Source of the DNA: a virus
Taxonomy: Duplodnaviria > Caudoviricetes
Strand: one strand, 5' to 3'
Length of the DNA: 29,722 nt
Virus record (IMG/VR): IMGVR_UViG_3300012952_000082
Location: 1 to 29,722 of that record
Made by a program: the position numbers and the translations under genes. The notes beneath the pieces are model-generated. The model did no database searches. It had not been told where the DNA came from and was given only the letters and a program-made list of their open reading frames with translations. This document shows positions 3,274 to 25,292 of the stretch, piece by piece; the first letter of the stretch is position 1, and every line of letters begins with the position of its first letter.

Positions 3274-5307
3274 ATGATAGGTAATGCTCTTCCAATTCCG
3301 TGGTTGAGGAGCATATATAGTTCCTCTGGTCCATCAGGTCCACAACCTTTCATATTAAAAATAGATACTAATAATACTTTTGGTGGTCCAAATTACCCAT
3401 TCGGAATAAACACAGACTCTTTATATACTTACGATTATACCGTTGATTGGGGAGATGGAACTATAACAAGTCACACTGGTAACGCTAGTCACACGTATAG
3501 TACTCAAGCTATTTATGAAGTGAAAATATCAGGAGAATGTCCATGGATAAAATCATGGACTACTAGTACTGGTATAAATTATGTAGTTGACATAATACAA
3601 TGGGGTGATTTAGAGTTTAAAAGTTTAAAAGAAACATTCAAATCTTGTAGTATGTTAGGTAATCCAGATGGGACTAGTTCTACTCCTGGTATACCATTAA
3701 CAGTGACAGATACACCTACATTTGCAAGCGACTTTGCTTTTGATGGTTTATCTGGGTGGGCAGAAAGAACTTACTTCACCTCAATACCTAACCTAAATTC
3801 CTGGCAAATCCCAGATGTTTTAACTAGTCTTGAGAAGTGCTTTTACGATATGAAGTGGTGGAATGATAGTATCTCAAACTGGGATGTATCGCATGTTGGT
3901 AATTTTAAAAACATGTTTTTCTTCTGTAGAGAATGGACAAACAGTGGTGATGATTTGAATGGTTGGGAAGTTGGTAAAAATTATACTGGTGATTTAAACT
4001 TTGAATCCATGTTTTACTATTGTGACAAAATAGAAGATATTAAAATTTGGAAACAAGATTTGCATTTATTAAACATAAATTTTATAAATACTAAGTTTAT
4101 GTTTTATCAATGTGAAAAATGGAAACTAGAGTTAGAAAACTGGGATAATTCTTCAGTTAAGATAAACGAACTAGAAGGAATGTTTTACGGTGTTGGCTTT
4201 TATTACGCTGGTAATAACTCAAACGGAGGAGGACGCCAATATACTGATGAAGGTTTAAAAACTGATTTTTTTGGTTGGGATTTTAATACTAATAAAACAT
4301 CTCTTAGAGCTTTATTTTCTAATGCTTGTTTTGACGCAACGTTTAATGCAAACTTAGATGGTCATACGGCGACTAATATCACCGATTTTGATAATATGTT
4401 TGCTAATACTTTTATATGTTCTCCAACTAGTGTAGATAACTGGGTATTGGGAAATACACCTAATATTACAATGCGTTACACTTTTAGTGGTAGACCTTTC
4501 AATAGGTGGCCAGGTCCACAAGAAAGAAGAGCTTTGGATTGGAAAGGAGATTTTGGATCAGTTCAAACATTAAATGGGTGGGACGTCTCTAATGTTATAG
4601 ATTTTGACGGATGTTTCAATAGTGCACAGTTTGATACGGGACCAGATGATTGCAAACCAATACTAGGTAGTTGGACTATATGCACAGATCCAACAGTTAA
4701 CGTAAGCTTAAGTCGTATGTTCAGAAACAGTCAGTTCAACGATACTTTAGTAAATGATATAAACAAATGGGATTTAAGTAGTGTTACCAGTATATTTGAA
4801 ACGTTTGGAGGTTCTGGTGGAGTTAGATTTAATCAATCCCTAAGCAACTGGGACACTAGTAATGTTACAAATATGGCCCAGTTTGTTTATTACAACGTTT
4901 ACTTTAATCAAGACATATCTCATTTTAATTTAGAAAAAGTTACAACAGTAAATAGGTTTTTTGATAAAACTCAAAATTATTCCTATGGGATGGATTGGAT
5001 GGAAATGCCTTTGATAACAGACGGTGAAAGATTTCAATTTCAATGGAAGTTTGATACTCAAAAATATACGGACACTTTAAATGCTTGGGCTTTATATTAT
5101 TATAATAGAGTACAGGCTGGTTTAACAGTTCCTCAAAACATATTAATGACATTTAACACTATAGGTTATTGGGGTGTTACAAATTACTTTATAGCAGGGT
5201 TAAATACTTTACCAAACGGGTTAACTACTAGGGATTATTTAATAACCGCAACTACTGCTGGTGTACCTGGCTTAGGTTGGACATTACAAGATGGAGGAGG
5301 TATATAA
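3274..5307 (+). CDS. PKD-like domain plus BspA/DUF285-type repeat protein (677 aa), probable virion adhesin
   Basis: YTVDWGDGT...SHTY...YEVKISG is PKD-like. Repeats such as ISNWDVSHVGNFKNMF, LNGWDVSNVIDFDGCF, INKWDLSSVTSIFETF and LSNWDTSNVTNMAQFV are typical of DUF285/BspA-family proteins. Confidence 0.8.
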   Translation: MIGNALPIPWLRSIYSSSGPSGPQPFILKIDTNNTFGGPNYPFGINTDSLYTYDYTVDWGDGTITSHTGNASHTYSTQAIYEVKISGECPWIKSWTTSTGINYVVDIIQWGDLEFKSLKETFKSCSMLGNPDGTSSTPGIPLTVTDTPTFASDFAFDGLSGWAERTYFTSIPNLNSWQIPDVLTSLEKCFYDMKWWNDSISNWDVSHVGNFKNMFFFCREWTNSGDDLNGWEVGKNYTGDLNFESMFYYCDKIEDIKIWKQDLHLLNINFINTKFMFYQCEKWKLELENWDNSSVKINELEGMFYGVGFYYAGNNSNGGGRQYTDEGLKTDFFGWDFNTNKTSLRALFSNACFDATFNANLDGHTATNITDFDNMFANTFICSPTSVDNWVLGNTPNITMRYTFSGRPFNRWPGPQERRALDWKGDFGSVQTLNGWDVSNVIDFDGCFNSAQFDTGPDDCKPILGSWTICTDPTVNVSLSRMFRNSQFNDTLVNDINKWDLSSVTSIFETFGGSGGVRFNQSLSNWDTSNVTNMAQFVYYNVYFNQDISHFNLEKVTTVNRFFDKTQNYSYGMDWMEMPLITDGERFQFQWKFDTQKYTDTLNAWALYYYNRVQAGLTVPQNILMTFNTIGYWGVTNYFIAGLNTLPNGLTTRDYLITATTAGVPGLGWTLQDGGGI

Positions 5308-6664: not shown

Positions 6665-6881
6665 TGAATTAATTAAGGTTGCAAAAGAACCTATTGTAGA
6701 CACAGGAGAAGATGTTTCAGCAGATAGACTTAAAAATGCTGCTGCAACTAAAAAACTTTGTATTATGGATGCATTTGAAATATTACAAAGAATTGAAGAG
6801 GAAGAAGATAGACTAAGTGAAAAACCCAAAGAAGTTAAAGAAGAAAGAGTGTTTAAATTTGCAGAAGGGAGAAGTAGATGA
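6609..6881 (+). CDS. Putative terminase small subunit (90 aa)
   Basis: Small helical charged protein immediately upstream of terL, with an ATGA overlap at 6878-6881. It overlaps the GroES-like gene by 56 nt. Function is inferred from position. Confidence 0.55.
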   Translation: MKTKETRKNIIQAGRKAVDELIKVAKEPIVDTGEDVSADRLKNAAATKKLCIMDAFEILQRIEEEEDRLSEKPKEVKEERVFKFAEGRSR

Positions 6882-9106
6882 GTTATCAACAAACGTTAGT
6901 CGAAGAGTTAAATAACTACATAAATCCTAAAATTGTAAAAAAGAAAAATAAAACTAAATCTTGGGAATATGGATATAATAGCGATTACGATTTTGTAGTT
7001 ATTAGCAAAACTGGAAAAATTGGAAAGATCATTGAAATACAAAACCTCCGTATTGCTTTACCAGCAGAAGATGAACCTTTTAAACGAAGCGAAAAACAAG
7101 AGGAACAGTATTGGGAGCAGAAAGAATACCCAAAAGAACTAAAAAGAATTAAAAGTAGATTTGACTGGGAAGAATATCCAATTGATTTTAAAGAAGAATG
7201 GTTTGATTATATAGATAATGAGTTTAAAAAAAGAGACGAAGGGCATTGGTTCTATAATAACGGCGTTCCTACTTACATTACAGGTACTCATTACATGTAC
7301 TTGCAATGGTCAAAAATTGATGTTGGAGCACCAGACTATAGAGAAGCAAATAGACTCTTCTTTATATTTTGGGAAGCATGTAAGGCAGATAATAGATGTT
7401 ATGGGATGTGCTATCTTAAAAACAGACGGTCTGGATTTTCTTTTATGTCCTCAGCTGAACTTGTCAACCAGGCCACAATATCTTCAGATGCCCGATTCGG
7501 CATCCTTTCAAAAACTGGAGCAGATGCTAAAAAAATGTTCACAGATAAAGTTGTCCCGATATCCGTTAACTATCCGTTTTTCTTCAAACCGATCCAGGAT
7601 GGTATGGATCGTCCTAAGACCGAATTGGCATATAGAGTCCCAGCTTCAAAACTTACTAGACGTAAACTAGAGTCTAAGGAACAATTAAAAGAGCTGCAGG
7701 GTCTTGATACTACTATAGATTGGAAAAACACAGGAGACAACTCTTACGATGGTGAAAAGTTAAAAATACTAGCTCACGATGAAAGTGGTAAGTGGGAAAG
7801 ACCTGATAATATATTAAATAACTGGAGAGTTACAAAAACTACATTAAGACTAGGTAGAAGAATCGTAGGTAAGTGTATGATGGGCTCAACTTCAAATGCA
7901 TTAGATAAAGGTGGAAACAACTTCAAGAAACTCTATTACAATTCAGACGTTACAAAAAGAAATAGAAATGGACAAACAAGTTCTGGCCTCTACTCTCTTT
8001 TCATCCCTATGGAATGGAACTACGAAGGATACATGGATACTTTTGGATTTCCTGTATTCACTACGCCAGAAAATCCAGTCAAAGGAGTCGATGGTCTCCC
8101 AATTAACATTGGAGTCATCGAACATTGGGAAAACGAAGCAGATGGACTTAAGCAAGATCAAGACGGATTAAACGAATTTTATAGACAATTTCCGCGTACA
8201 GAAAAACACGCGTTTAGAGACGAAACCAAATCTAGTCTATTTAATTTAGTTAAAATATATCAACAAATAGATTACAACGAAGAAATCCACAATGTATCTT
8301 CAATAAGTAAAGGTAATTTTCAATGGGTTGGAGGAATAAAAGATACTACGGTAAAATTTTACCCTAATAGCAATGGAAGGTTTTATGTATCTTGGGTTCC
8401 AGACGGGCATCTACAAAATAAAATAATATTAAAAAATGGACTTAAATACCCTGGAAACGATCATCTCGGAGCATTTGGTTGTGACTCTTATGATATTAGC
8501 GGCACTGTCGACGGTAAAGGGTCTAAAGGATCACTTCACGGATTGACAAAGTTTTCTATGGACAACGTGCCACCTAATCACTTTTTTTTAGAATATATAG
8601 AAAGACCACCCACTGCTGAAACTTTTTTTGAAGATGTACTAATGGCGTGTGTTTTTTATGGAATGCCTATATTAGCTGAAAACAATAAACCTAGATTATT
8701 GTATTATTTTAAAAGAAGAGGGTATCGAGGTTATAGTATAAATAGACCTGACAAACTTTATAATAAACTATCTGTTGCAGAAAGAGAAATTGGAGGAATA
8801 CCTAATTCTAGTGAAGATGTTAAGCAAGCTCATGCTGCAGCTATTGAAACTTTTATAGAGGAAACTGTAGGTGAACAGCCAGATGGTACTTATGGTGATA
8901 TGTATTTTCAAAGGACATTAGAAGATTGGGCTCAGTTTGATATTAACAACAGAACTAAACACGATGCTTCTATTAGTTCTGGTTTAGCTTTAATGGCTTG
9001 TAATAAAAACAAATATAGACCACGCGCTAAAATTAATTTACAACCAATAGATATAGGTATGAGAAGATATGATAATAAAGGATTAATTTCAAAAATAATA
9101 GAATAA
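6878..9106 (+). CDS. terL: Terminase large subunit (742 aa)
   Basis: Deviant Walker A LKNRRSGFS, Walker B ILAHDESGKW, motif III MGSTS, and nuclease acidic motifs FGCDSYD, ILAENN and KHDASIS. Directly followed by the portal gene. Confidence 0.92.
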   Translation: MSYQQTLVEELNNYINPKIVKKKNKTKSWEYGYNSDYDFVVISKTGKIGKIIEIQNLRIALPAEDEPFKRSEKQEEQYWEQKEYPKELKRIKSRFDWEEYPIDFKEEWFDYIDNEFKKRDEGHWFYNNGVPTYITGTHYMYLQWSKIDVGAPDYREANRLFFIFWEACKADNRCYGMCYLKNRRSGFSFMSSAELVNQATISSDARFGILSKTGADAKKMFTDKVVPISVNYPFFFKPIQDGMDRPKTELAYRVPASKLTRRKLESKEQLKELQGLDTTIDWKNTGDNSYDGEKLKILAHDESGKWERPDNILNNWRVTKTTLRLGRRIVGKCMMGSTSNALDKGGNNFKKLYYNSDVTKRNRNGQTSSGLYSLFIPMEWNYEGYMDTFGFPVFTTPENPVKGVDGLPINIGVIEHWENEADGLKQDQDGLNEFYRQFPRTEKHAFRDETKSSLFNLVKIYQQIDYNEEIHNVSSISKGNFQWVGGIKDTTVKFYPNSNGRFYVSWVPDGHLQNKIILKNGLKYPGNDHLGAFGCDSYDISGTVDGKGSKGSLHGLTKFSMDNVPPNHFFLEYIERPPTAETFFEDVLMACVFYGMPILAENNKPRLLYYFKRRGYRGYSINRPDKLYNKLSVAEREIGGIPNSSEDVKQAHAAAIETFIEETVGEQPDGTYGDMYFQRTLEDWAQFDINNRTKHDASISSGLALMACNKNKYRPRAKINLQPIDIGMRRYDNKGLISKIIE
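7218..7670 (+). CDS. Candidate overprinted gene in +1 frame of terL, 150 aa, signal-peptide/lipoprotein-like N-terminus
   Basis: Stop-free for 150 codons while flanking parts of the same frame are stop-dense. Start context is TATATAGATA-ATG. N-terminus is MSLKKETKG-IGSIITAFLLTLQVLITC-TCNGQ. Confidence 0.45.
   Translation: MSLKKETKGIGSIITAFLLTLQVLITCTCNGQKLMLEHQTIEKQIDSSLYFGKHVRQIIDVMGCAILKTDGLDFLLCPQLNLSTRPQYLQMPDSASFQKLEQMLKKCSQIKLSRYPLTIRFSSNRSRMVWIVLRPNWHIESQLQNLLDVN
7911..8171 (+). CDS. Second candidate overprinted ORF in +1 frame of terL (GTG 7911 or ATG 7968)
   Basis: Stop-free window that coincides with atypical terL codons (CTC, GTC, ATC) in place of the usual TTA/GTA/ATA. Confidence 0.3.
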   Translation: METTSRNSITIQTLQKEIEMDKQVLASTLFSSLWNGTTKDTWILLDFLYSLRQKIQSKESMVSQLTLESSNIGKTKQMDLSKIKTD

Positions 9107-11518
9107 ATGCAAATAGAAACTAATTATAGTGCTTTTCCTAATCAGGTGGTACCTGTCGCAGAGAAAAACTCTTTAGACTACGGCTTGCAAGTTGGACGAG
9201 CAATAGAAGGAGAGTGGTTTAGAAACTATAGAGGTGGTTTAGGAGCGGCTTACCAGAATGGTGGTTATGCAGTTAACTTTAATGCTTATCATACCTTAAG
9301 ATTGTATGCTAGAGGAGAGCAACCTATACAGAAATATAAAGATGAATTATCTATTAATGGAGATTTATCTTACTTGAACTTAGATTGGCAACCTGTTCCT
9401 ATTATATCTAAATTTGTAGATATAGTAGTTAATGGAATGTCTCAAAGAAATTACGAGGTTAGAGCTTTCGCTTGTGATCCAGAATCTACAAAAAAACGTA
9501 CTGAATATGCTAACCTCCTAGCTAGAGATGTTGAAGAAAGAGAATTATTTGAGCAATTACGACAAACCCTAGGTATAGACATAAGAATGGAAGAATCTAA
9601 ATTATTAGCTTTAGAATCTCCAGAAGAACTTCAACTACATTTAGCTTTGGATTATAAACAGTCTGTAGAAATAGCTGAAGAAGAATTAATAAATAATGTA
9701 TTAGATAAAAACAAGTTTGATTTAGTTAGAAGAAGATTTGTTTATGATTTAGTAACCTTAGGGATAGGAGCAACAAAAACCGATTGGAATAAATCTGAAG
9801 GTATTACAGTAGATTATGTCGATCCAGCTAACATGGTGTACTCTTACACAACTGATCCCAACTTTGAGGATATATATTACGTGGGAGAAGTTAAGTCAGT
9901 TAGCTTAGAAGATTTAAAAAGACAATTTCCTTATCTTTCAGATGAGGAGATGAAGCAAATACAACAGTATAGAGGTAACGAAGAGTATTTAAGAAACTGG
10001 AGTGGAAGAAATGATAATAACACTGTTCAAGTTTTATATTTTGAATACAAAACATACGTGGATCAAGTGTTTAAAATTAAAGAAACACCTAACGGGTTAG
10101 TAAAAGCTTTAGAAAAACCTGATACTTTTGATCCACCTGAAAGTGAAAATTTTGAAAGAGTTTCAAGATCTATAGAAGTATTATATAGTGGCGCTAAGAT
10201 ACTAGGACATCCCCTAATGCTTAAATGGGAAATGGCTAAAAATATGACAAGACCTACTTCTAATATTTCTAAAGTAAATATGAATTACGTTATCTGTGCA
10301 CCACGAATGTACAAAGGTAGAATCCAATCTTTAGTTGGTAGAATAACAGGTTTTGCGGATATGATACAGTTGACTCATTTAAAGCTGCAGCAGGTGTTAT
10401 CTAGAATGGTTCCAGATGGTGTTTATTTGGACATGGACGGTTTAGCTGAAGTAGATCTAGGTAATGGAACAAATTACAATCCAGCAGAGGCTTTAAATAT
10501 GTACTTTCAAACTGGTAGTATAGTTGGTAGATCAATGACTCAGGATGGTGAAATGAACCATGGTAAAGTTCCAATACAAGAATTACAGTCTAGTTCTGGT
10601 GGTGCAAAAATTCAAAGTCTTATTCAAACGTATCAGTATTACTTGCAAATGATACGGGATGTAACCGGGCTTAATGAAGCAAGAGACGGCAGTACGCCGG
10701 ATAGAGACTCTTTAGTAGGTTTACAAAAAATAGCTGCTGCTAACTCTAATACAGCGACAAGACATCTAGTTCAAGCTATGTTGTATCTGTCTTCTAGAAT
10801 ATGTGAAAACATAACGTATAGAGTAGCAGATTCTTTAAATTACCCTTTAACTTACGAAGCTTTAAAAGATAGTTTAAATAGATATAATACCGCCACGCTG
10901 GATGAATTAAAAGATTTAAGTCTACATGATTTTGGTATTTATCTTCAACTAGAACCAGACGAAGAAGAAAAAGCTATGTTAGAGCAAAACATACAAATGG
11001 CTTTACAGCAACAACAAATAACGTTAGAAGATGCTATTGATTTAAGAGAAATTCCAAATATAAAGCTAGCTAATCAAATGTTGAAGCAAAGAAGAAAGAA
11101 GAAACAGCAAGAAGATCAAGCTCAACAACAGCAAATGATACAAGCACAAGCTCAAGCTAATGCTGAGGCAGCGGAGAAAGCAGCTATGGCAGAAGTTCAA
11201 AAACAACAAGCTTTAGCACAAACTGAACTACAAGTTGAACAAGGTAAAACTCAATTTGATATACAAAAAATGGAAGTCCAAGCGCAAATGAAGCAAAAAC
11301 AAATGGAACAACAGTTTCAGTATGACATGCAGCTTAAGCAAATGGATTTACAAGAAATAACAACTAGAGAGCAGTTTATAGAAGATAGAAAAGATCAAAG
11401 AACTAAATTACAAGCTTCTCAACAAAGTCAATTGATTAATCAGCGTAATGAAAACATGATGCCAATTAACTTTGAAGATCCAAACTATGCGGAAACAGGA
11501 GGTCCTGGATTAGCATAA
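9107..11518 (+). CDS. Portal protein (803 aa)
   Basis: Follows terL with no gap. Helical, with PVPIISKFVDIVVNG and IRDVTGLNEARDG segments and a long Q-rich coiled-coil C-terminus like the barrel of P22/crAss-type portals. Confidence 0.85.
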   Translation: MQIETNYSAFPNQVVPVAEKNSLDYGLQVGRAIEGEWFRNYRGGLGAAYQNGGYAVNFNAYHTLRLYARGEQPIQKYKDELSINGDLSYLNLDWQPVPIISKFVDIVVNGMSQRNYEVRAFACDPESTKKRTEYANLLARDVEERELFEQLRQTLGIDIRMEESKLLALESPEELQLHLALDYKQSVEIAEEELINNVLDKNKFDLVRRRFVYDLVTLGIGATKTDWNKSEGITVDYVDPANMVYSYTTDPNFEDIYYVGEVKSVSLEDLKRQFPYLSDEEMKQIQQYRGNEEYLRNWSGRNDNNTVQVLYFEYKTYVDQVFKIKETPNGLVKALEKPDTFDPPESENFERVSRSIEVLYSGAKILGHPLMLKWEMAKNMTRPTSNISKVNMNYVICAPRMYKGRIQSLVGRITGFADMIQLTHLKLQQVLSRMVPDGVYLDMDGLAEVDLGNGTNYNPAEALNMYFQTGSIVGRSMTQDGEMNHGKVPIQELQSSSGGAKIQSLIQTYQYYLQMIRDVTGLNEARDGSTPDRDSLVGLQKIAAANSNTATRHLVQAMLYLSSRICENITYRVADSLNYPLTYEALKDSLNRYNTATLDELKDLSLHDFGIYLQLEPDEEEKAMLEQNIQMALQQQQITLEDAIDLREIPNIKLANQMLKQRRKKKQQEDQAQQQQMIQAQAQANAEAAEKAAMAEVQKQQALAQTELQVEQGKTQFDIQKMEVQAQMKQKQMEQQFQYDMQLKQMDLQEITTREQFIEDRKDQRTKLQASQQSQLINQRNENMMPINFEDPNYAETGGPGLA

Positions 11519-11541
11519 ATTATTAATTATTATATTTTATT

Positions 11542-12654
11542 ATGTCAAAAACAAAACAAGAACAAGAGGCACAACCCCTCAAAATGAAAAAACCATCATT
11601 CAAAAGAGAAAATGATGCAACATTTAAACTAGATTTAACAAAAGATAAAGAAACAAAAGATGCCGTTCCAAAGCAAGAAACAGAGAAACCTGTGCTACAG
11701 ACTACTGAAAATGAAGAAAAACAAGACGTGGGATTGCAAGAAGTGGGACAGACACACGAAGAAGAAAAACCTACAATAACAGAAATTGTTTCTGAAAAAA
11801 AAGAAATACCTCAACCTCCTAAAGAAAATAAAGTTGAAATGCCAGAGAGCATAAACAAATTAGTTTCTTTCATGAAGGAAACAGGAGGTACTCTTCAAGA
11901 TTATGCAAGATTAAACGTTGATTTATCTAAAATTGATGATGACGCAATATTAAGACAATATTATTCTAGTACTAAACCTCACTTAAACCATGAAGAAGTG
12001 GACTTTTTATTACACGATAAGTTTACACCTGAAGAAAATGAAGATGAAAGAAGTACTAAGAAAAAGAAATTAGCCCTAAAAGAAGAAATAGCTCAAGCAA
12101 AAAACTATTTTGAAAATACTAAGAAAAAGTATTATGAAGATCTTAAGTTAAGATCTAGTAACGCAGATAGTAAAGCTCAAGAATTTTTCGATAGGTATAA
12201 TAAAGAGCAAGAAATTGCTAAACAAAAAGAGGGAGAGTTTGCAAGTAAAACGCAAGACTTTTTCAACAACGAATTCAAAGGTTTTGAAATTAAAGTTGGA
12301 GATAAAAAGTTTAATTACGGAGTAAAAAATCCTGACAACATAGCTCAACAACAGTCTAAAACAAACACTATTTTTAAAAAGTTTTTAGGAAATCAAGGTG
12401 AAATAACAGATTTACAGGGTTATCATAAAGCTGCTTACGCAGCAAACAACATTGATTCTATTGCTGAACATTTTTATGAGCAAGGTAAAGCCGATGCAAC
12501 TAAAAATATAATGGCTCAATCAAATAATGTTAGTACAGACCCTCGACCACAGGATGGTGGAGATGTCTTTATAAACGGTATGAGAGTAAAAGCCATTAGT
12601 GGAGTAGATAGTTCAAAGTTGAAAGTAAAATTCAAAAATAAAACTAAAAATTAA
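11542..12654 (+). CDS. Capsid scaffolding protein (370 aa)
   Basis: Lies between portal and capsid genes. Highly charged, with a disordered E/K-rich N-terminus and a helical C-terminus (HFYEQGKADA). Confidence 0.7.
   Translation: MSKTKQEQEAQPLKMKKPSFKRENDATFKLDLTKDKETKDAVPKQETEKPVLQTTENEEKQDVGLQEVGQTHEEEKPTITEIVSEKKEIPQPPKENKVEMPESINKLVSFMKETGGTLQDYARLNVDLSKIDDDAILRQYYSSTKPHLNHEEVDFLLHDKFTPEENEDERSTKKKKLALKEEIAQAKNYFENTKKKYYEDLKLRSSNADSKAQEFFDRYNKEQEIAKQKEGEFASKTQDFFNNEFKGFEIKVGDKKFNYGVKNPDNIAQQQSKTNTIFKKFLGNQGEITDLQGYHKAAYAANNIDSIAEHFYEQGKADATKNIMAQSNNVSTDPRPQDGGDVFINGMRVKAISGVDSSKLKVKFKNKTKN
11660..11779 (+). CDS. Overprinted 39-aa basic protein in +1 frame of scaffold gene (missing from ORF track)
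   Basis: Reads MPFQSKKQRNLCYRLLKMKKNKTWDCKKWDRHTKKKNLQ*, with an A-rich leader and A at -3. It resembles small phage proteins I recall starting MPFKSxxQR. Host-frame codons here are atypical (GCC, GTG x3, TTG). Confidence 0.6.
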   Translation: MPFQSKKQRNLCYRLLKMKKNKTWDCKKWDRHTKKKNLQ

Positions 12655-12659
12655 AAATC

Positions 12660-14186
12660 ATGGGATTTGTACAAGGCGGGAGTTTTCCTGCGTCATTAAG
12701 CCCTGCGGCAAAGAAAATGACTCTATCAACAAACTTTTTAAGTTTTGATGATAATAGTGGTAATGACTTTGCTCAGCAGTATCTACCAGAGCTTTACGAA
12801 GCTGAAGTAGAGAGATATGGAAACAGAACTATTTCTGGTTTCTTAAGAATGGTCGGAGCAGAAATGCCAATGACCTCAGATCAAGTAATCTGGTCTGAAC
12901 AAAACAGATTACACATTGCATACCAAAAAGCTCAATTAACAGCTGGCGCTGTAGTTGGTTTTGATGTAGATTGTACTATAGTACTTGACTTATCAGCAGG
13001 TGCTGGTGGTGCTGATGCTCCTTCAGGTGCTGTAAGAGTAGGACAAACTATTTTAATGGCTGACAATGCTACTGGACTAATTGTTCAAAAAGGTTTAGTA
13101 CAAGGTGTTGATAATACTGCTGGTAAACCAGCTGATACACTTTATGTTAAGTTTTACGGAACTGCTACTAATGCTTTACCAGAAACTCCAGCTGGAATAA
13201 ACTTATATGTTTATGGTGCTGACTTTGGAAAAGGTGCAGTAGGAATGAATGGTTCTATTGAGCCACAATTCACTCAGTATGCTAACAATCCAATTATCAT
13301 TAAAGATAACTTCCAGATCAATGGTTCTGACACTGCTCAGATCGGTTGGGTTGAAGTTGCTACAGAAGATGGTCAATCAGGATACCTTTGGTATTTAAAA
13401 TCTGAATCTGAAACAAGATTAAGATTTGAAGATTATCTTGAAATGGTAATGGTTGAAGCTTTACCAATGAACAACGCTGCTTACGCTGCTAATGTTAATT
13501 ACGATTTCGGTGGTGAAACAGCGGGTGCTGGTCCAGAAGCTGCTAACATTAACATTAAAGGTTCTGAAGGATTATTTGCTGCTATCGAAGATAGAGGTAA
13601 TGTTTATTCTGGTTTTGCTGGAGCTGCTGCTCCTGGTTCTGGTGCTTTAGGTGATTTCGATCAAATACTAAAACAACTAGATAAGCAAGGCGCTATTGAA
13701 GAAAACATGCTTTTCTTATCAAGATCTACAGCTCTTGATTTTGACGATATGGTTGCTGCTATGAATGGATCTTATGCATCTACTCAAGCTGCTTCATATG
13801 GTTTATTCGAGAACGATGGAGACATGGCACTTAACTTTGGTTTCTCTGGTTTTAGAAGAGGTTCTTATGACTTCTACAAAACTGACTGGAAATATCTTAA
13901 CGATGCTTCTTTAAGAGGTTTATCTAAAGAGATTGACGGTGTAATGATACCAGCTGGTACTACAACTGTTTATGACCAAATGATGGGATCAAATATTAGA
14001 AGACCTTTCTTACATGTAAGATATAGAGCTTCTGAGACTGAAGATCGAAGAATGAAGTCATGGATCACTGGTTCTGTAGGTGGTGCATACACTGACACTT
14101 TAGATGCGATGACTGTAAGTTTCTTGTCTGAAAGATGTTTAGTAACTCAAGCTGCTAACAATTTCGTATTGTTTAAAGGAGCTTAA
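12660..14186 (+). CDS. Major capsid protein (508 aa)
   Basis: Position after the scaffold gene, highly expressed-type codon bias (GCT, GGT, TTC, AAC) and a terminator immediately downstream. Motifs include QYLPELYEAEVERYGNR, WYLKSESETRLRFEDYLE and FLSERCL. Confidence 0.88.
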   Translation: MGFVQGGSFPASLSPAAKKMTLSTNFLSFDDNSGNDFAQQYLPELYEAEVERYGNRTISGFLRMVGAEMPMTSDQVIWSEQNRLHIAYQKAQLTAGAVVGFDVDCTIVLDLSAGAGGADAPSGAVRVGQTILMADNATGLIVQKGLVQGVDNTAGKPADTLYVKFYGTATNALPETPAGINLYVYGADFGKGAVGMNGSIEPQFTQYANNPIIIKDNFQINGSDTAQIGWVEVATEDGQSGYLWYLKSESETRLRFEDYLEMVMVEALPMNNAAYAANVNYDFGGETAGAGPEAANINIKGSEGLFAAIEDRGNVYSGFAGAAAPGSGALGDFDQILKQLDKQGAIEENMLFLSRSTALDFDDMVAAMNGSYASTQAASYGLFENDGDMALNFGFSGFRRGSYDFYKTDWKYLNDASLRGLSKEIDGVMIPAGTTTVYDQMMGSNIRRPFLHVRYRASETEDRRMKSWITGSVGGAYTDTLDAMTVSFLSERCLVTQAANNFVLFKGA

Positions 14187-17985: not shown

Positions 17986-20900
17986 ATGGCTAATGAACTA
18001 AGAAGTACCTTCATCAGATCTAAAATGAATAAAGATCTTGATGCAAGGATTGTACCACCTGGAGAATACAGAGATGCAGTTAACATAGCAGTAAGTAAGT
18101 CAGAAGGAGCTGATGTTGGTGCTGTAGAAAACGTTTTAGGAAATAAAATAGTTTCTGATTTTGGTCTTAATTCTACTTTTCCAAATACAGAGTGTATAGG
18201 TATATATGGAGATAAAACAAATAATAGAATATTTGTTTTCTTAACTGATTACACTGACAATTCTGAAGACCTACTTAGTAATAAAGCTTTTTCAGGAGCT
18301 TTTTGTGGTATATACGTTATTGACTTTGAAGCTGGAAATAATTATAAAAAGTTAGTTCAAGGGTCATGGTTAAACTTTTCTAAAAATAGCCCAATATTTG
18401 GTATTAGTTTATTAGAAGACACACTATTTTGGACAGATAATAGAAATCAACCTAGAAAAATAAGTGTTAGTAAAGCTTTAGATAGACCAGCGGATTCTGC
18501 TAATCCATATTACCAGATAGAAGAAAATATATCAGTTGCTACTTATTACCCTTATGAACCAGCACAAGTTTATGATGAATACGAAGTTGAGGTTGTTGTA
18601 AGAACTTCTAATATAAAAGCAGATACAAGAACTAACGCAGGTTGTAGTGTTGCAAGTCCTGGTATTAATCCAATACAAAACGCTGTAAACTTAGGTACTC
18701 CACCTGAACCACCTGAAAATTATCCTCAAACCGGTTGGCAAACTATGTTTCAAATAACTAGTGAAATACCAGAAGGTTTAAAATTACATCCTGGAATACA
18801 ATTTTATATAAAAAAATCAACGCCTGGCGAAAACCCATTAGTGCCAGGAACTACATTTGGTGCACTACAAAATATAACTTCGTATCCATATTATAATGAA
18901 ATAAGAAATTATCCTATAGCGTGGGGACCTAGTAATTTTGGAGACTGTTATAATGGAAGTACTAAATACGATTTAACTAGCGCTAATTTAGCTCTTAGAC
19001 CTCAAGCAGGTTATGGTACTGCACAAGAAAAAGGTAATGGATTAATTGGTATGTCTTGCTCTTATGAGTATTTAACTAATCCTGAAGCTTTATTAACAGC
19101 TAATGACGGTACTAGTGTTTTAACCGCTAATATAGGACCTGCATCGGAATTTCCTGTAGGCGCTGATTTTGGCCATGAAAGTGCCGATTATCAAGAAAAT
19201 TATTTAAAATGGTTTTATTCTAATATACCTTTATTAGATGGCAATGAAGATTATACAGATTCATTTAGTACAGCTTGGTATGGAACAGCTACATTAGTAT
19301 TTGTAGTACCTAAAATGGTTAATAAAACTGACCAATTTTTACCACCAACATATAGAAATAAATTTGAAGGATTCTATCCACATGATAGTGCTACAACATT
19401 ACCTGACACATCCTGTGAGGGTGATGCTGGAGTCGGTAATCGTAATTATCGACTTGCTTCTAATGGTGCTACTATAGATGAAGTAGAAGCTTTAGGTGTT
19501 AAAAATGTTACTGTTAATCAAAGTTGGTTTCCTAGAATTACAGGAGATTCCGATCTAGCTAATTACCCATATTACGATGGTAATATCAATCAGGGTGGAA
19601 ATGATATGATTCTAGTATCCCCAAATTACGGAGGTGATGGTAATACTCAAGTTACGTTGTTAACACCTTATCAACGATCTGTAAGCGCAGGAATGTTTAG
19701 GGTTCTTAATAATGTAAATGGTTACGAATTAGGTGGGGCTGGACTTGGTGATGGAAATGCTAGTTCTTCTTATTTAAAAAACTACTTACAACCAGGAATG
19801 AGAATTTACTCTCCTATGTTTAATAGATTACCGTATGATTTCTATATTGATCAAATATTTATTAAAACAGTACAAGGAATTACCGTTCCACTTGGTTATA
19901 CTTATTTTAGTGTGTATGCTAAAGACAAATTTGGAAATTATATAGAAGATTGGGTAATGCCAGGGTTTTGTGATGTTAAAGATGCATCTTGGATTGACTT
20001 CCAATTTGTTAACCCTTACTATGATCCTTTGTTTAGCGGGGATAAAGAATATTTAAAAGATAAATTTTGTAAACTATCTTATAGGTTTCAATTTGAAAAC
20101 AACGAGTTTTCTTTAATAGCTCCTTTTACTCAAACAATGTTTGCTCCACTAGATGAAGGTTATTATACTTTTAATGCGGATAGATGGGATATACAAGAAG
20201 GAGGTACAGCTTTCTTAATGAATGGAGGTGCTGAGCCAACTAGCTCTATAGAAACAACTTCTCAAGGAACTATAAATCCATTATATCAAAACAGTATTAA
20301 TGAGGTTTCTTTAGTTATTAAAGCACCTAGAGTAGGAACTGAATATATAAAGTGGAATGAAGCTGAAGATAAATTAAAAATAAAAAATTTACAGATAATT
20401 TTTTCAGAATCAGATAGCAATAATTTAAGATTGTTGAAATCGATTCCTATGTCAGATCCTACTGTTATTAGTAATGACACTGATTCTTATGTTTATGTTT
20501 GGCAAGGTGATAAACCAATAAAATCACTACCTTCTAATGAGTCAACTAGAGTTTGGGATCAAGTACCTTTAAGAGCTTTAGCACAAGAGATATCAGGAAA
20601 TAGAGTTATTTATGGTAACTTTGTTGATAAGCATAGTTCACCTGATTTTTTAGATTTTGATATTGGTGTAGATGGAAAATACAATGTGGATACAGAGTTT
20701 TCTAATGACGCTAGAGTTCAATACAAATATCAAACTTTAAAAGGTAACAGAAGTTATCAAGTAGGTGTTGTTTTAGCCGATAAATTCGGAAGACAAACTG
20801 ACGTTATATTATCTTCACCTTCTGTAATTACATCATCAAATAACGAAACTTTATTTAGCGGTGATACTTTTACAGCACCTTATTTATCTGAAGAAAAAGC

Positions 20901-23325
20901 TATAAGTCTGCTAAAAGTAACAGGTAACAATTTAAGTAATTGGGAAGGAGATAGTTTAAAAATGCTATGGAGAAACCCTATACCAAACTCTATAGCTGGA
21001 TTAGATGGGTATCCTGGTCTATACACGGAAGAAGGAGGAGTTTCAAGAGACAACAATAGTATTGTAGTAGAAACTGCAGGATCAGATAATTATAGTGTAG
21101 CTAGAAATGTACCAACTCTAGCAGTTACAGGTGTTGGAGAAGGATTAACATTTGACATAAACGATGTAGATAGCGGTCCTATTCAATTCCCTACTGATCT
21201 ATATGTAAATAAACCTGGTAGAGGATATAAACCAGGTGATATAGTTAAAATAGAACAAGGTGGTGCTGATCAATGTGAAGTAAGAATATTAAAAGTAACT
21301 GAAGAAAACACTTTAGGCTTTTATTCTTACAAGGTAGTTGTTAAACAAGATCAACAAGATTATTATAATTTGTATCTTCCTCAAATAATTAATGGAGAGC
21401 CATTAACTAGTCAAGCTTTTGCTGGCGGATTTAATGAAGATATTCTAGTAAGTCAAGATTCTAAATTAACTTTTCCTACAATAGGAGATAATGTTAATAA
21501 AATACAAAGAGACGTTGAAGAAAGCAATGATTTAATAAAATTTATATCTAGTAGTACTACTTTATGGCCAAGAGTATCTCAATTTGGTGGGGTTTATATA
21601 AATCCATGGGTTAATTCTACTTCAGGTTCAGGTGCTGGAAATGTATGGACAGTTGATGTTGGTACTATTCAAACTGGAAATGTATTTAATCAAAAAGTAG
21701 CGGATAGTGTTATAAACGTGGGTCAAGTAGATGACATATATGGTCAAAATGTTACTAATGTTACTTATCAAACAGTAGATGCTTTAGTATATAAACAACA
21801 AGCAAACCCATGGATAACTGTAGCGGAAAACGACGTTAACAGAAATCCATTTATGAAAAAGTGGGAAGCAGCTTATGGTCCTAATTATGGTGGTGGTGGT
21901 CCAACTGCCGGTGTATTAGCGGAAAATTACGCACAATATTATGATGCTATAGAATGTACTATTGATCAACGTATAATTCCAACAGGTGTTGGCGCTGCTG
22001 GTAATTTATCTCCAAATAATGCAACATCTCCTTCTTATAGTAATGTTACATTTGGAACTTTTAACTGTGGCTTAGCCGTTGTTGAAACTACGCCATTTGA
22101 ATCTAATATAGATATATATTGGGAAACTTCTACAGCTGGTACTATAGCAGATTTAAACTACGCTATAGAAACAAATGTAGATGAACAGCAATTATTTTCT
22201 GTAGATATAGATAGAAATCCAAATGGATGGAATGAAAATGATGAATCGTTATATTGGTTGCTTCAAGAAAATACAGCTCTACCAGCTGGTCAACCTTATG
22301 ATCCAGATAATTTTTATCCACTTTCTGGACCTAGTGGAGCGTATGATCCATGGATACTTTCAGTTACCCCTAAAAATGTAGTAGGTGGAATTATACCTCT
22401 AAATAGAGTTGTTGGCACACCAACAGTTACAGTTGTAGATAATTTAGGTAATTCATATCCAACTGTTTTTATAATGAATAATAATACTACAGGAACTAGT
22501 GAATTTAAACTTTATAACCTTTCTCAACAAATTCCTTATCTTTCTGCTCCAGGTCAAGGTCATACATTTACAGCTACAATAACTTTTGAAACTTTACCTG
22601 AGTTACCTATAGACCCTAACTTTATTAAAAGTTTTGATGTGCAATTTGATTTAGAAAATCATGAACCAGAAAGAATTACTAATCCAAGAAATCCTAGAAG
22701 AGACTATGGACCAGGAACTGCTGACTGGGGTGATCCTTGGCCTGTTCCTTCAGCAGAAGCTACTTGTGCTCCTCAACTTACAACTACAGATACTGGAGTT
22801 GTTGTAGGTAAAATACCTTGCCCATCTTTAGGGAGTGATCTTGGAGAAGAACCTAGTTATACTAATGGTATGTTTATACAGCCGTTTTTCCCTGTGGTAG
22901 GTGGACCACCTCCACCGACAGCAAATTGGGGAGCTCCTGAAGACACTAATTTCCAAGGTAGATTTGGTATACCAGAAAGAGCAGGTGACGAATTAAAATG
23001 GGAAATAACTAAATGTGTAACCGCTCAAATTGATGTAGTTAATAATATTTTAGTTCCTTTACCTACTACTGATCCTAATTATTATAATGCCTTAGCTAAT
23101 GTAGATTGGGTTTATGGAGATAATGGTTACTTTGATGATCCTGTTGGAAATGGAACAGGTTCACAGTTTAACGGGATAGAAGTAACAAGTGCTATACCTC
23201 AGACAGGTATATACTTGCTTGAGTGGAAGGTAACAGATGCAAATGATAATGACGCTGATGGTAATGAGTTATCATTGGCTTATCCAGAACCTGGTATAAT
23301 TCAAATGGCTTTTGAGATTGTGTAA
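17986..23325 (+). CDS. Tail stabilisation/muzzle protein, N-terminal part (1779 aa, large insertions)
   Basis: KMNKDLDARIVPPGEYRDAVN, LFWTDNRNQPRKI, SYRFQFENNEFSLIAPFT, QEISGNRVIYGNF and YQVGVVLADKFGR are motifs of crAss-like/P22 gp10-type stabilisation proteins. Confidence 0.7.
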   Translation: MANELRSTFIRSKMNKDLDARIVPPGEYRDAVNIAVSKSEGADVGAVENVLGNKIVSDFGLNSTFPNTECIGIYGDKTNNRIFVFLTDYTDNSEDLLSNKAFSGAFCGIYVIDFEAGNNYKKLVQGSWLNFSKNSPIFGISLLEDTLFWTDNRNQPRKISVSKALDRPADSANPYYQIEENISVATYYPYEPAQVYDEYEVEVVVRTSNIKADTRTNAGCSVASPGINPIQNAVNLGTPPEPPENYPQTGWQTMFQITSEIPEGLKLHPGIQFYIKKSTPGENPLVPGTTFGALQNITSYPYYNEIRNYPIAWGPSNFGDCYNGSTKYDLTSANLALRPQAGYGTAQEKGNGLIGMSCSYEYLTNPEALLTANDGTSVLTANIGPASEFPVGADFGHESADYQENYLKWFYSNIPLLDGNEDYTDSFSTAWYGTATLVFVVPKMVNKTDQFLPPTYRNKFEGFYPHDSATTLPDTSCEGDAGVGNRNYRLASNGATIDEVEALGVKNVTVNQSWFPRITGDSDLANYPYYDGNINQGGNDMILVSPNYGGDGNTQVTLLTPYQRSVSAGMFRVLNNVNGYELGGAGLGDGNASSSYLKNYLQPGMRIYSPMFNRLPYDFYIDQIFIKTVQGITVPLGYTYFSVYAKDKFGNYIEDWVMPGFCDVKDASWIDFQFVNPYYDPLFSGDKEYLKDKFCKLSYRFQFENNEFSLIAPFTQTMFAPLDEGYYTFNADRWDIQEGGTAFLMNGGAEPTSSIETTSQGTINPLYQNSINEVSLVIKAPRVGTEYIKWNEAEDKLKIKNLQIIFSESDSNNLRLLKSIPMSDPTVISNDTDSYVYVWQGDKPIKSLPSNESTRVWDQVPLRALAQEISGNRVIYGNFVDKHSSPDFLDFDIGVDGKYNVDTEFSNDARVQYKYQTLKGNRSYQVGVVLADKFGRQTDVILSSPSVITSSNNETLFSGDTFTAPYLSEEKAISLLKVTGNNLSNWEGDSLKMLWRNPIPNSIAGLDGYPGLYTEEGGVSRDNNSIVVETAGSDNYSVARNVPTLAVTGVGEGLTFDINDVDSGPIQFPTDLYVNKPGRGYKPGDIVKIEQGGADQCEVRILKVTEENTLGFYSYKVVVKQDQQDYYNLYLPQIINGEPLTSQAFAGGFNEDILVSQDSKLTFPTIGDNVNKIQRDVEESNDLIKFISSSTTLWPRVSQFGGVYINPWVNSTSGSGAGNVWTVDVGTIQTGNVFNQKVADSVINVGQVDDIYGQNVTNVTYQTVDALVYKQQANPWITVAENDVNRNPFMKKWEAAYGPNYGGGGPTAGVLAENYAQYYDAIECTIDQRIIPTGVGAAGNLSPNNATSPSYSNVTFGTFNCGLAVVETTPFESNIDIYWETSTAGTIADLNYAIETNVDEQQLFSVDIDRNPNGWNENDESLYWLLQENTALPAGQPYDPDNFYPLSGPSGAYDPWILSVTPKNVVGGIIPLNRVVGTPTVTVVDNLGNSYPTVFIMNNNTTGTSEFKLYNLSQQIPYLSAPGQGHTFTATITFETLPELPIDPNFIKSFDVQFDLENHEPERITNPRNPRRDYGPGTADWGDPWPVPSAEATCAPQLTTTDTGVVVGKIPCPSLGSDLGEEPSYTNGMFIQPFFPVVGGPPPPTANWGAPEDTNFQGRFGIPERAGDELKWEITKCVTAQIDVVNNILVPLPTTDPNYYNALANVDWVYGDNGYFDDPVGNGTGSQFNGIEVTSAIPQTGIYLLEWKVTDANDNDADGNELSLAYPEPGIIQMAFEIV

Positions 23326-23354: not shown

Positions 23355-25292
23355 ATGGCAACAATAATAGAAATAGATTACTATAACGCTTTTTGGACTA
23401 AAAAGATATACACAGGACCAGGCGCTGCTCCAACAACTGGAGGTGAAACCTATGCTGGAGGATCTGCTTGTTATCCTGGACCAGTTGGATTTGGTGATTC
23501 TGTTAAAGGTTTAGGTAATATAACTACTTTTAGCGAGCAAGACGGTGGGCCAGTTCCATCTTCTTTAGATAAATGGCCTAATATTAATTCAGCTAATTTT
23601 GGAGTTCCTAGTGGTCCTTTAAATCCTGTACAACAACAAATATTAAGCACAAACTTTTACATAGAAGATAGTAGAATAAGAGGTGGTTATAATAATACAC
23701 AGGTAAATTTAGGTGTTAGGGCTTATTTGAACGAAGATAATCCTTTACAAAAACATCGTATAAACTCTTTAATATATTCAGGTCCACTAAATAGTTTAAC
23801 AAACTTTAATGAAACAAATGTATTTTCAATAGGAGAAAGTATAACTAAGTCGGTAGACCCATCTTATAACTCTATACAATATCTATCTGCTGACGATACT
23901 AACTTGCTTATAATGCAAGAGAATAAAACTAGCTATGCTTTAATTGATAAAGACGCTATATATTCTGCAGAAGGATCTGGAACTCCAGTATCTACAGAAA
24001 CGGAAGTTATTGGTCAAGTGGTTCCTTACTTAGGAGAATATGGTATAAGTAGAAATCCAGAATCATTTGCTAGATTTGGTTTTCAAAAATACTTTGTAGA
24101 TAAAGATCGTAGTGCTGTTATGAGGCTATCTAGAGATGGTTTAACAGAAATCTCTGAGTATGGCATGAAAGATTATTTTAGAGACGAATTAGAGCTTGTA
24201 ACTGATGAAATGAGATTAGATAATACTAACGTCTACAATACGTTTGGGGCTGGTGGAAGTTTGATTGGGGAATATATATACGTAGCGCAAGATCCTGGAG
24301 TTGTGGTTGCTCCACCACTTGGTAGTTTAGTTAGATTTGACAATTACACTGGTAATATGAGACCTTATGTTATAAGAGTAGTGGCAGTTGCTGGCGGTTG
24401 GGTAGCATACCTACGAGGTTGGCCAGAAGTTGGAGGAGTTAAAGTTGCTGTACCTGCTACTTGTTATTTTCAAACCAAAATAAAAGGTAGAGTTTTAGGA
24501 GCTTATGATATATATGGAAAACAATACACAGTTTCTCTACAGAAAAATCCAGCTACTAAAAACCAAATTGATTTAGAAAGTTTAGATGATTATCAAACAG
24601 TTGGTTTTGACGAGTCAATAAATGGTTGGGTAAGTAGATATACTTATAAACCTTGGCAAGCGGTTAGTTTAGAAAATAAATTCTATACTGTTGGTCCAGA
24701 TAATAGAAGATACAAAGTATGGCAGCAATATGAAGATACTGTTGATAGAGGAGACTTCTATAGTCAAGGTGTTCTTCCTTCAGCTATAACTTTCTTTGCT
24801 AATGGCGAACCTTCTCATAGTAAAGTTTTTCAAACTATTTCTTACGAAGGATCTAGCGGTTGGTATATTGCAAGTATACTCAGTGATGAAGAAGGAAAAG
24901 ATTTAGTAAATAATGTATGGGAAGAGTTTACTGATCAAACAACTGTTGTTTATAGTTATATAGAAGGACAGTATGAATTAAACACTCCTACTAATACAGG
25001 ATTAAACGCAGATCCGGCTGTTGATACTATTATACATGCTGGTTTTGATAGAAAAGAAAATAGATACGTAGCTAATTTAGTACAAAAAATAACACAAAAC
25101 GATCCAACACTTGGACCTCCAAATGATCCACCTTATTACCCAGTAAGACCAGGTGAAGTTATATCAGGTTCAGATATGAGTGGTATAAAAGGTTTTTATT
25201 CTACAATTACAATAGCTACTGATAACGTTACAGAAGTAGGTGGACCTAAAGAGTTATTTACTGTAGCAACTAAAGTAGTTAAATCATCTTAA
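23355..25292 (+). CDS. Tail stabilisation/muzzle protein, C-terminal part (645 aa)
   Basis: LIYSG, GEYGISRNPESFA, YFVDKDRSAVMRLSRDGLTEISEYGMKDYF, GWVSRYTYKP and KVFQTISYEG are beta-propeller-type motifs of the same family. Confidence 0.7.
   Translation: MATIIEIDYYNAFWTKKIYTGPGAAPTTGGETYAGGSACYPGPVGFGDSVKGLGNITTFSEQDGGPVPSSLDKWPNINSANFGVPSGPLNPVQQQILSTNFYIEDSRIRGGYNNTQVNLGVRAYLNEDNPLQKHRINSLIYSGPLNSLTNFNETNVFSIGESITKSVDPSYNSIQYLSADDTNLLIMQENKTSYALIDKDAIYSAEGSGTPVSTETEVIGQVVPYLGEYGISRNPESFARFGFQKYFVDKDRSAVMRLSRDGLTEISEYGMKDYFRDELELVTDEMRLDNTNVYNTFGAGGSLIGEYIYVAQDPGVVVAPPLGSLVRFDNYTGNMRPYVIRVVAVAGGWVAYLRGWPEVGGVKVAVPATCYFQTKIKGRVLGAYDIYGKQYTVSLQKNPATKNQIDLESLDDYQTVGFDESINGWVSRYTYKPWQAVSLENKFYTVGPDNRRYKVWQQYEDTVDRGDFYSQGVLPSAITFFANGEPSHSKVFQTISYEGSSGWYIASILSDEEGKDLVNNVWEEFTDQTTVVYSYIEGQYELNTPTNTGLNADPAVDTIIHAGFDRKENRYVANLVQKITQNDPTLGPPNDPPYYPVRPGEVISGSDMSGIKGFYSTITIATDNVTEVGGPKELFTVATKVVKSS

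Follow-up and report, generated by a model that had tools for sequence, protein, structure and literature searches.

The window analysed here, a 29,722-nucleotide stretch of Caudoviricetes DNA taken at its full length, carries a 39-codon open reading frame inside a scaffold-like gene of the head module. The question is whether this frame is a gene in its own right, how it came to lie there, and what its product might do. The first-pass annotation described a basic +1-frame peptide with 14 lysines and arginines, two cysteines and two tryptophans behind an adenine-rich run, and each of these features is present in the sequence (11 K, 3 R, 2 D/E, 2 C and 2 W). The frame has its own start and stop wholly within the host gene, on the same strand and in a shifted frame. 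Uncommon GTG codons had been said to create both tryptophans and one cysteine, and the counts bear this out: GTG accounts for 33 of the 486 valine codons in 13 long genes of the window, and three of the four GTG codons of the host gene (codons 51, 63 and 68) fall in the overlap, where they give rise to Cys12, Trp24 and Trp29. Openness in a single genome was rejected as evidence for a gene, since an open frame with an ATG arose in 30% of trials when synonymous codons were resampled with scaffold residues 40-79 held fixed. The case goes beyond chance because relatives keep the ORF and because selection is specific to its frame. We judge it almost certain, from comparative sequence evidence, that the nested ORF is a real protein-coding gene missed by annotation, because related phages conserve its protein sequence.

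Table 1. Features of the window discussed in the text
Feature	Position	Strand	Remarks
Terminase large subunit	6878..9106	+	PHROG 6681; probable second nested +1 gene inside
150-codon +1 ORF (probable gene)	7218-7670	+	Inside the terminase gene
Portal protein	9107..11518	+	PHROG 6547, E 9.6e-142
Host gene, 370 aa, scaffold-like by position	11542..12654	+	Between portal and capsid genes
Predicted translation initiation region, Bacteroidota type	11647..11659	+	A at -13, -12, -11 and -3; C at -6; no Shine-Dalgarno; weak folding
Nested 39-aa basic gene (almost certain), MPF[KQ]S..Q family, two-cysteine subtype	11660..11779	+	ATG at 11660, TAA ending at 11779; +1 frame of the scaffold-like gene, host codons 40-79; Cys12, Trp24-Asp-Cys26, Trp29
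Major capsid protein	12660..14186	+	PHROG 13704; relatives in Elemovirus and Cellulophaga phages

The host gene consists of a variable acidic linker (approximately residues 35-99), which contains the nested gene, and a conserved domain from approximately residue 100. It has no family match and no solved-structure match in Pfam, PHROGs and solved-structure sequences; the putative name 'scaffold' is taken from gene position alone, and its ortholog in Flavobacterium phage Elemo is annotated 'structural protein'. A GroES-like gene and the terminase precede the portal, host and capsid genes, an order common to three examined relative records. The capsid relatives comprise Elemo, Cellulophaga phages and a Maribacter phage. 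From the capsid relatives and the common gene order, we infer an Elemovirus-related marine Flavobacteriia phage with a flavobacterial host.

Conservation of the nested frame was assessed in two samples. Among 80 scaffold relatives, mostly 42-55% identical, 55 harbor a +1 ORF starting MP at the same site, one of which (L075) is degenerate beyond the first residues. In a terminase-anchored sample, which shares some contigs with the first, a 5'-complete scaffold gene was available at 46 of 80 loci; the ORF is present at 30 of the 46 by strict pattern and at 32 when profile matches are added. The ATG and the open frame are conserved in related scaffold genes, and together with selection on the +1 frame these counts support the first-pass view of a real hidden gene. 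In scaffold linkers that lack the gene, 11% of codons carry a +1 stop, and in-frame stops lie 0-13 codons upstream of the start at 56 of 57 nested loci.

Selection on the two frames was compared over the first 32 codons of the overlap, using 32 disjoint sister pairs from a set of 95 scaffold genes that bear the ORF. The overlap has a pN/pS of 0.15 in the +1 frame (pS 0.276, pN 0.041) and of 1.03 for the same bases in the scaffold frame. Because the overlap was aligned on the +1 protein, the comparison is tilted somewhat towards the +1 frame, though the pairs are close. The pS of the +1 frame equals that of the scaffold core (pS 0.274, pN/pS 0.21). Synonymous-site conservation, which the first-pass annotation had put forward as a check, is evident, with scaffold third positions differing by 0.044 in the overlap versus 0.18-0.20 elsewhere. 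Within the overlap, the small frame is under purifying selection and the scaffold frame changes neutrally. Variation in the DNA contigs of four runs, one of them a possible source, adds nothing to this: of 16 variant sites in 11400-12700, none falls in the ORF, an absence that carries no evidential weight because only about two were expected there. RNA runs contained only 4-10% of words, and promoter scans gave results at chance level.

Translation initiation in Flavobacterium is favoured by adenines at -3, -6, -12 and -13, according to the available part of one study (PMC6847099). Against the background of a linker that is A-rich anyway, adenine occupies these four positions in 0.81, 0.92, 0.97 and 0.95 of 73 distinct nested starts, compared with 0.97, 0.71, 0.90 and 0.89 of capsid starts and 0.40, 0.49, 0.57 and 0.32 of other +1 ATGs. 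Folding energy is -1.5 for nested starts versus -5.3 for other +1 ATGs, and the spacing of the signal is fixed: 91 of 120 copies have AAA as host codon -4, versus 7-36% for the nine other upstream codons. The signal predicted from the sequence fits the ribosomes of a flavobacterial host. The initiation signal changes with setting: a Shine-Dalgarno-like motif lies ahead of the start in 2 of the 120 copies within scaffold genes, but in 8 of 15 that occupy other host frames and in 23 of 63 that stand free.

The family of the peptide extends far beyond the scaffold genes. The peptide has the N-terminal M-P-F..Q8 motif, a later tryptophan and similarity to the family profile (98%, E 1.8e-13 in a comparison that is partly circular, as profile A2 includes a few nested rows). 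The first-pass annotation mentioned free-standing phage proteins that begin MPFKSxxQR, and free-standing MPF[KQ]S..Q proteins were indeed found; the tryptophan pattern that it gave is that of the common tryptophan subtype, to which the window peptide, a two-cysteine version, does not belong. A profile of nested peptides retrieved 1156 called proteins of 21-91 aa, and a wider profile retrieved 4089 clusters at 50% identity. Free copies are annotated in Streptomyces phage FlowerPower and phage 023Pt_psg01 and are present unannotated in S-CBS2 and C75C1. In Elemo, a close two-cysteine copy occupies the +1 frame of a giant structural gene, and a pattern search found no family copy in the surroundings of its scaffold gene. 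The 199 distinct copies, from samples selected by the peptide that therefore give no frequencies, fall into 120 within scaffold genes, 15 nested in other open frames and 64 that are free or fused. Of the 15, 14 lie in giant genes of several phage groups and one, at a GC-rich locus, is doubtful; 51 of the 64 free or fused copies have stops in the frame that a host would use.

Database searches place this family among proteins with no assigned function. The window peptide has no PHROG match at E<=1, no Pfam match and no match among solved-structure sequences. Six of 12 relatives match PHROG 1375, which has no known function, with tryptophan-subtype peptides reaching E 2.4e-5. In the ESM Atlas, clusters with 18-37% DUF3008 (PF11450) members were retrieved at 0.85-0.86, the others being unnamed; DUF3008, also with no known function, is only a lead. 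The window peptide itself matches neither PHROG 1375 nor DUF3008. Foldseek against viral models returned 30 matches, none with E<=0.001, the top ones being uncharacterised or unnamed. A literature search, mostly of listings and abstract openings, found nothing on the MPF[KQ]S..Q family or its nesting; one phage paper containing 'MPFKS' proved unrelated.

The first-pass term 'overprinted', which makes the small frame the new one, does not fit, since the small frame is widespread and selected and the scaffold frame there is neutral. The Keese-Gibbs criterion dates overlapping frames by their distribution, as set out in the available part of PMC8227390. A de novo frame would have a narrower distribution and no outside homologs, whereas the small frame is represented in 4089 clusters and is free in unrelated phages. 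The small frame is probably the older one, because its family is widespread as free genes, mostly next to terminase, portal or capsid genes, as N-terminal modules and as copies nested in giant virion genes. Given a widespread, selected small frame and a neutral scaffold frame, uptake of an already existing gene by a tolerant linker fits better than overprinting, the direction being read from these comparisons.

Loss and exchange are both apparent in a quick tree of 99 scaffold cores that were not selected by the peptide. Of these, 57 have non-cysteine versions, 12 have the cysteine subtype, 27 are without the gene and three have broken copies. Absence needs 14 changes on the tree, eight of them forced by strong branches, and the cysteine subtype needs five. 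In the closest relatives of the window, L001 and L002, the ATG is lost and the core is shorter by 45 and 36 bases, in frame. No family member occurs anywhere in the L001 record, which is 94% complete. A family member was found in none of five gene-lacking records, four of which are 55-81% complete, versus five of five controls. On these comparisons, the nested gene is accessory and dispensable, and the closest relatives have lost it. Two loci, L035 and L036, have identical scaffold cores yet 12 differences in the overlap, which suggests exchange of the overlap as a cassette.

The structure proposed for the product is based on a free-standing relative, P0085, for which the model gives helices at residues 6-15 and 17-26 and a loose basic tail (pLDDT 77.6). 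Both cysteines are present in 64 of 193 peptides and neither in 129, never one alone, and the pairing holds across loop lengths differing by up to eight residues. This suggests that Cys12 and Cys26 may form a disulfide or a metal staple; the pairing may also be one inherited event. The mean net charge of the peptides is +0.27 per residue, and the basic tails are partly a free by-product of reading E/K linkers in +1. At 72 of 80 loci, the two nearest long genes were scanned, and a hand tally gave a named neighbour at 43: 28 head or packaging, four GroES, three tail, two lysis, five DNA metabolism and one glycosyltransferase gene.

The strong positive charge, the gene neighbourhood and the nesting in head or virion genes make a role in the head the most likely one, and we give about an even chance to the peptide being a late, head-associated accessory DNA-binding protein of two helices. 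On the late portal-scaffold-capsid message, the adenine signal would direct ribosomes to the internal ATG, and the product would fold as a two-helix hairpin with a lysine-rich tail, possibly stapled in the window by Cys12-Cys26. The peptide would then bind and neutralise DNA during or after packaging, inside the phage head or while it is being filled. An old free-standing gene would have been captured in frame within the acidic linker, which may tolerate it because the lysine-rich frame reads glutamate-rich one base back.

The role need not be in the head, because 11 of the 43 named neighbours are not head genes and relatives are found on chromosomes of soil Acidobacteria, among 62 genome loci. 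A real gene whose product acts on the host or in the cytoplasm, in DNA protection, anti-defence, or RNA or ribosome binding, is a tentative possibility. Accessory presence and subtype swapping on the tree, as well as the divergent overlaps of L035 and L036, would suit such a role, as would the free chromosomal relatives, two of whose eight scanned loci lie beside Ku or ATP-dependent ligase genes. Against it, head, packaging or GroES genes make up 32 of the 43 named neighbours, and nested copies are located in head-module or giant virion genes. The chromosomal relatives (L340-L374, from Acidobacteriaceae and one Verrucomicrobiae contig) are of approximately 51-59 aa and mostly have Shine-Dalgarno-like motifs; one scanned locus is beside Ku, DinB and UDG, and one beside an ATP-dependent ligase and SRAP.

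By analogy with the T4 capsid targeting sequence, the N-terminal hairpin could instead serve as a targeting tag, binding the prohead, portal or terminase and bringing attached cargo along; we consider this improbable. The module does start no more than two residues from the N-terminus, with seven exceptions among the best 150 of the 4089 clusters, and those 150 matches include proteins of up to 767 aa. The long fusions are of low complexity, with a Pfam domain in none of 58 longer module proteins, and several come after the portal gene. However, the module is present in phages whose portal and terminase families differ, which argues against one protein partner, and the window version carries no cargo.

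It is very unlikely that the +1 frame is made only as a frameshifted scaffold fusion or acts as a translation-control element of the scaffold. Two broken copies (L047 and L061) keep the frame with ATA replacing ATG, as such a role would allow, the third (L033) having an early stop. At L218 (3859-5044), a frame break at approximately 4085-4090 terminates the N-terminal part of the scaffold and fuses the peptide with its C-terminal domain; the break is an assembly error or a natural variant. The conserved ATG with its full start signal, the upstream in-frame stops, selection at the amino-acid level and the occurrence of the same protein as a free gene elsewhere all argue against this reading. 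A chance open frame from a low-complexity linker, despite the resampling result, is effectively refuted by the retention of the ORF in both samples of relatives, by the extent of the family, by the stop density of linkers without the gene, by selection on the +1 frame and by a motif common to free-standing genes of Streptomyces and Synechococcus phages.

Gene D of phiX174 is a scaffolding gene. Gene E, nested in it, is judged a de novo frame and encodes a membrane lysis protein (available part of PMC8227390). The window resembles this pair, for in both phages a small gene is entirely contained in another gene of the same strand. In the window, however, it is the nested frame that is widespread and selected, and its predicted product is soluble and basic. 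In lambda, Rz1 is embedded +1 in Rz, shares DNA with a flexible linker and is often missed by annotation, and spanins exist in separated and embedded layouts, although the study in question found no spanin family with both (PMC6139136). The +1 position in a flexible linker and the oversight by annotation are shared with the nested gene. In contrast, Rz1 is a lipoprotein and an obligate partner of the product of its host gene, whereas the window peptide is without a lipoprotein signal, dispensable and found in two unrelated host genes, and the MPF[KQ]S..Q family, unlike spanins, has both layouts. The peptide has no hydrophobic stretch, and its host is a soluble acidic head-module protein, unlike an embedded o-spanin and its host, an inner-membrane i-spanin. 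The genes of T4 internal proteins are not known to be nested. These proteins are small accessory head proteins whose lysines contact packaged DNA and which carry a conserved targeting sequence on diverse bodies (available part of PMC3012670); the likeness to the putative head peptide is a functional analogy only, with no sequence or fold link found. New with respect to phiX174 E and Rz1 is a nested frame that appears to be old, dispensable, and present in unrelated host genes and free positions.

Textbook overprinting is reversed here: a probably old gene moves into and out of head-module genes, and selection acts on the hidden frame but cannot be detected on the host frame. The intact, start-lost, deleted and swapped loci provide natural intermediates for the origin of nested genes. 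With the peptide, an abundant marine phage group gains a gene that its annotation lacks, and attention is drawn to a family of thousands of clusters for which Pfam has no model. Translation and virion location are directly testable, because cultured Elemo has a close copy in a giant structural gene. A virion proteome of Elemo or phi38:1 was not found in the literature, though subscription papers or supplements could hold one, and the available part of PMC7077304 does not mention Elemo.

The terminase gene probably contains a second hidden gene, as judged from the absence of stops. The +1 frame of terminase codons 116-254 has no stop in 56 of 81 sequences, each with about nine synonymous chances of one (null probability approximately 0.0004). 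In the other 25 sequences, the frame is broken and 51% of the stop chances are used; third-position GC in the comparison is 0.40 versus 0.23, a raised GC3. The ORF encodes a hydrophobic stretch at the N-terminus with cysteines behind it; searches of PHROGs and Pfam gave no family match, and the start of the ORF is not fixed. It is conceivable, as a speculative wider view, that tailed phages widely carry the MPFKS hairpin as an unrecognised module for head targeting or for binding packaged DNA, that the hairpin, as a dual-coding cassette equipped with a start signal, moves among scaffold genes, giant virion genes and free positions, and that this Flavobacteriia phage lineage hides several such genes in the +1 frames of core packaging genes, terminase included.

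Several minor observations concern further frames and neighbouring genes. A second stop-poor +1 stretch of the terminase gene (window approximately 7905-8170, plus strand; codons 343-405) has 0.003-0.005 stops per codon in codons 351-400, with only about three chances per sequence. The giant structural gene of Elemo (L081) contains an extra 40-aa basic +1 ORF at 2568-2690, and that of L084 contains a truncated 25-aa second family copy as a +1 ORF at 2326, which suggests duplication and decay. A second nested basic ORF with a PHRNKKKY motif is found in five of 120 scaffold copies (L089, L090, L092, L093 and L098); in the window, no second nested ORF lies behind the 39-aa gene. At L312 (1501-1842), a 113-aa basic protein with a distantly similar N-terminus adjoins a probable endolysin gene in phages that also carry the nested gene. 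In the window, a DUF285 repeat protein (3274-5307, E 3.4e-33) is encoded upstream of the packaging genes. The adjacent genes at 17986-23325 and 23355-25292 match different parts of PHROG 14478 and different parts of crassvirus muzzle Pfam models, below or near cut-off, as a split or expanded muzzle-like protein might.
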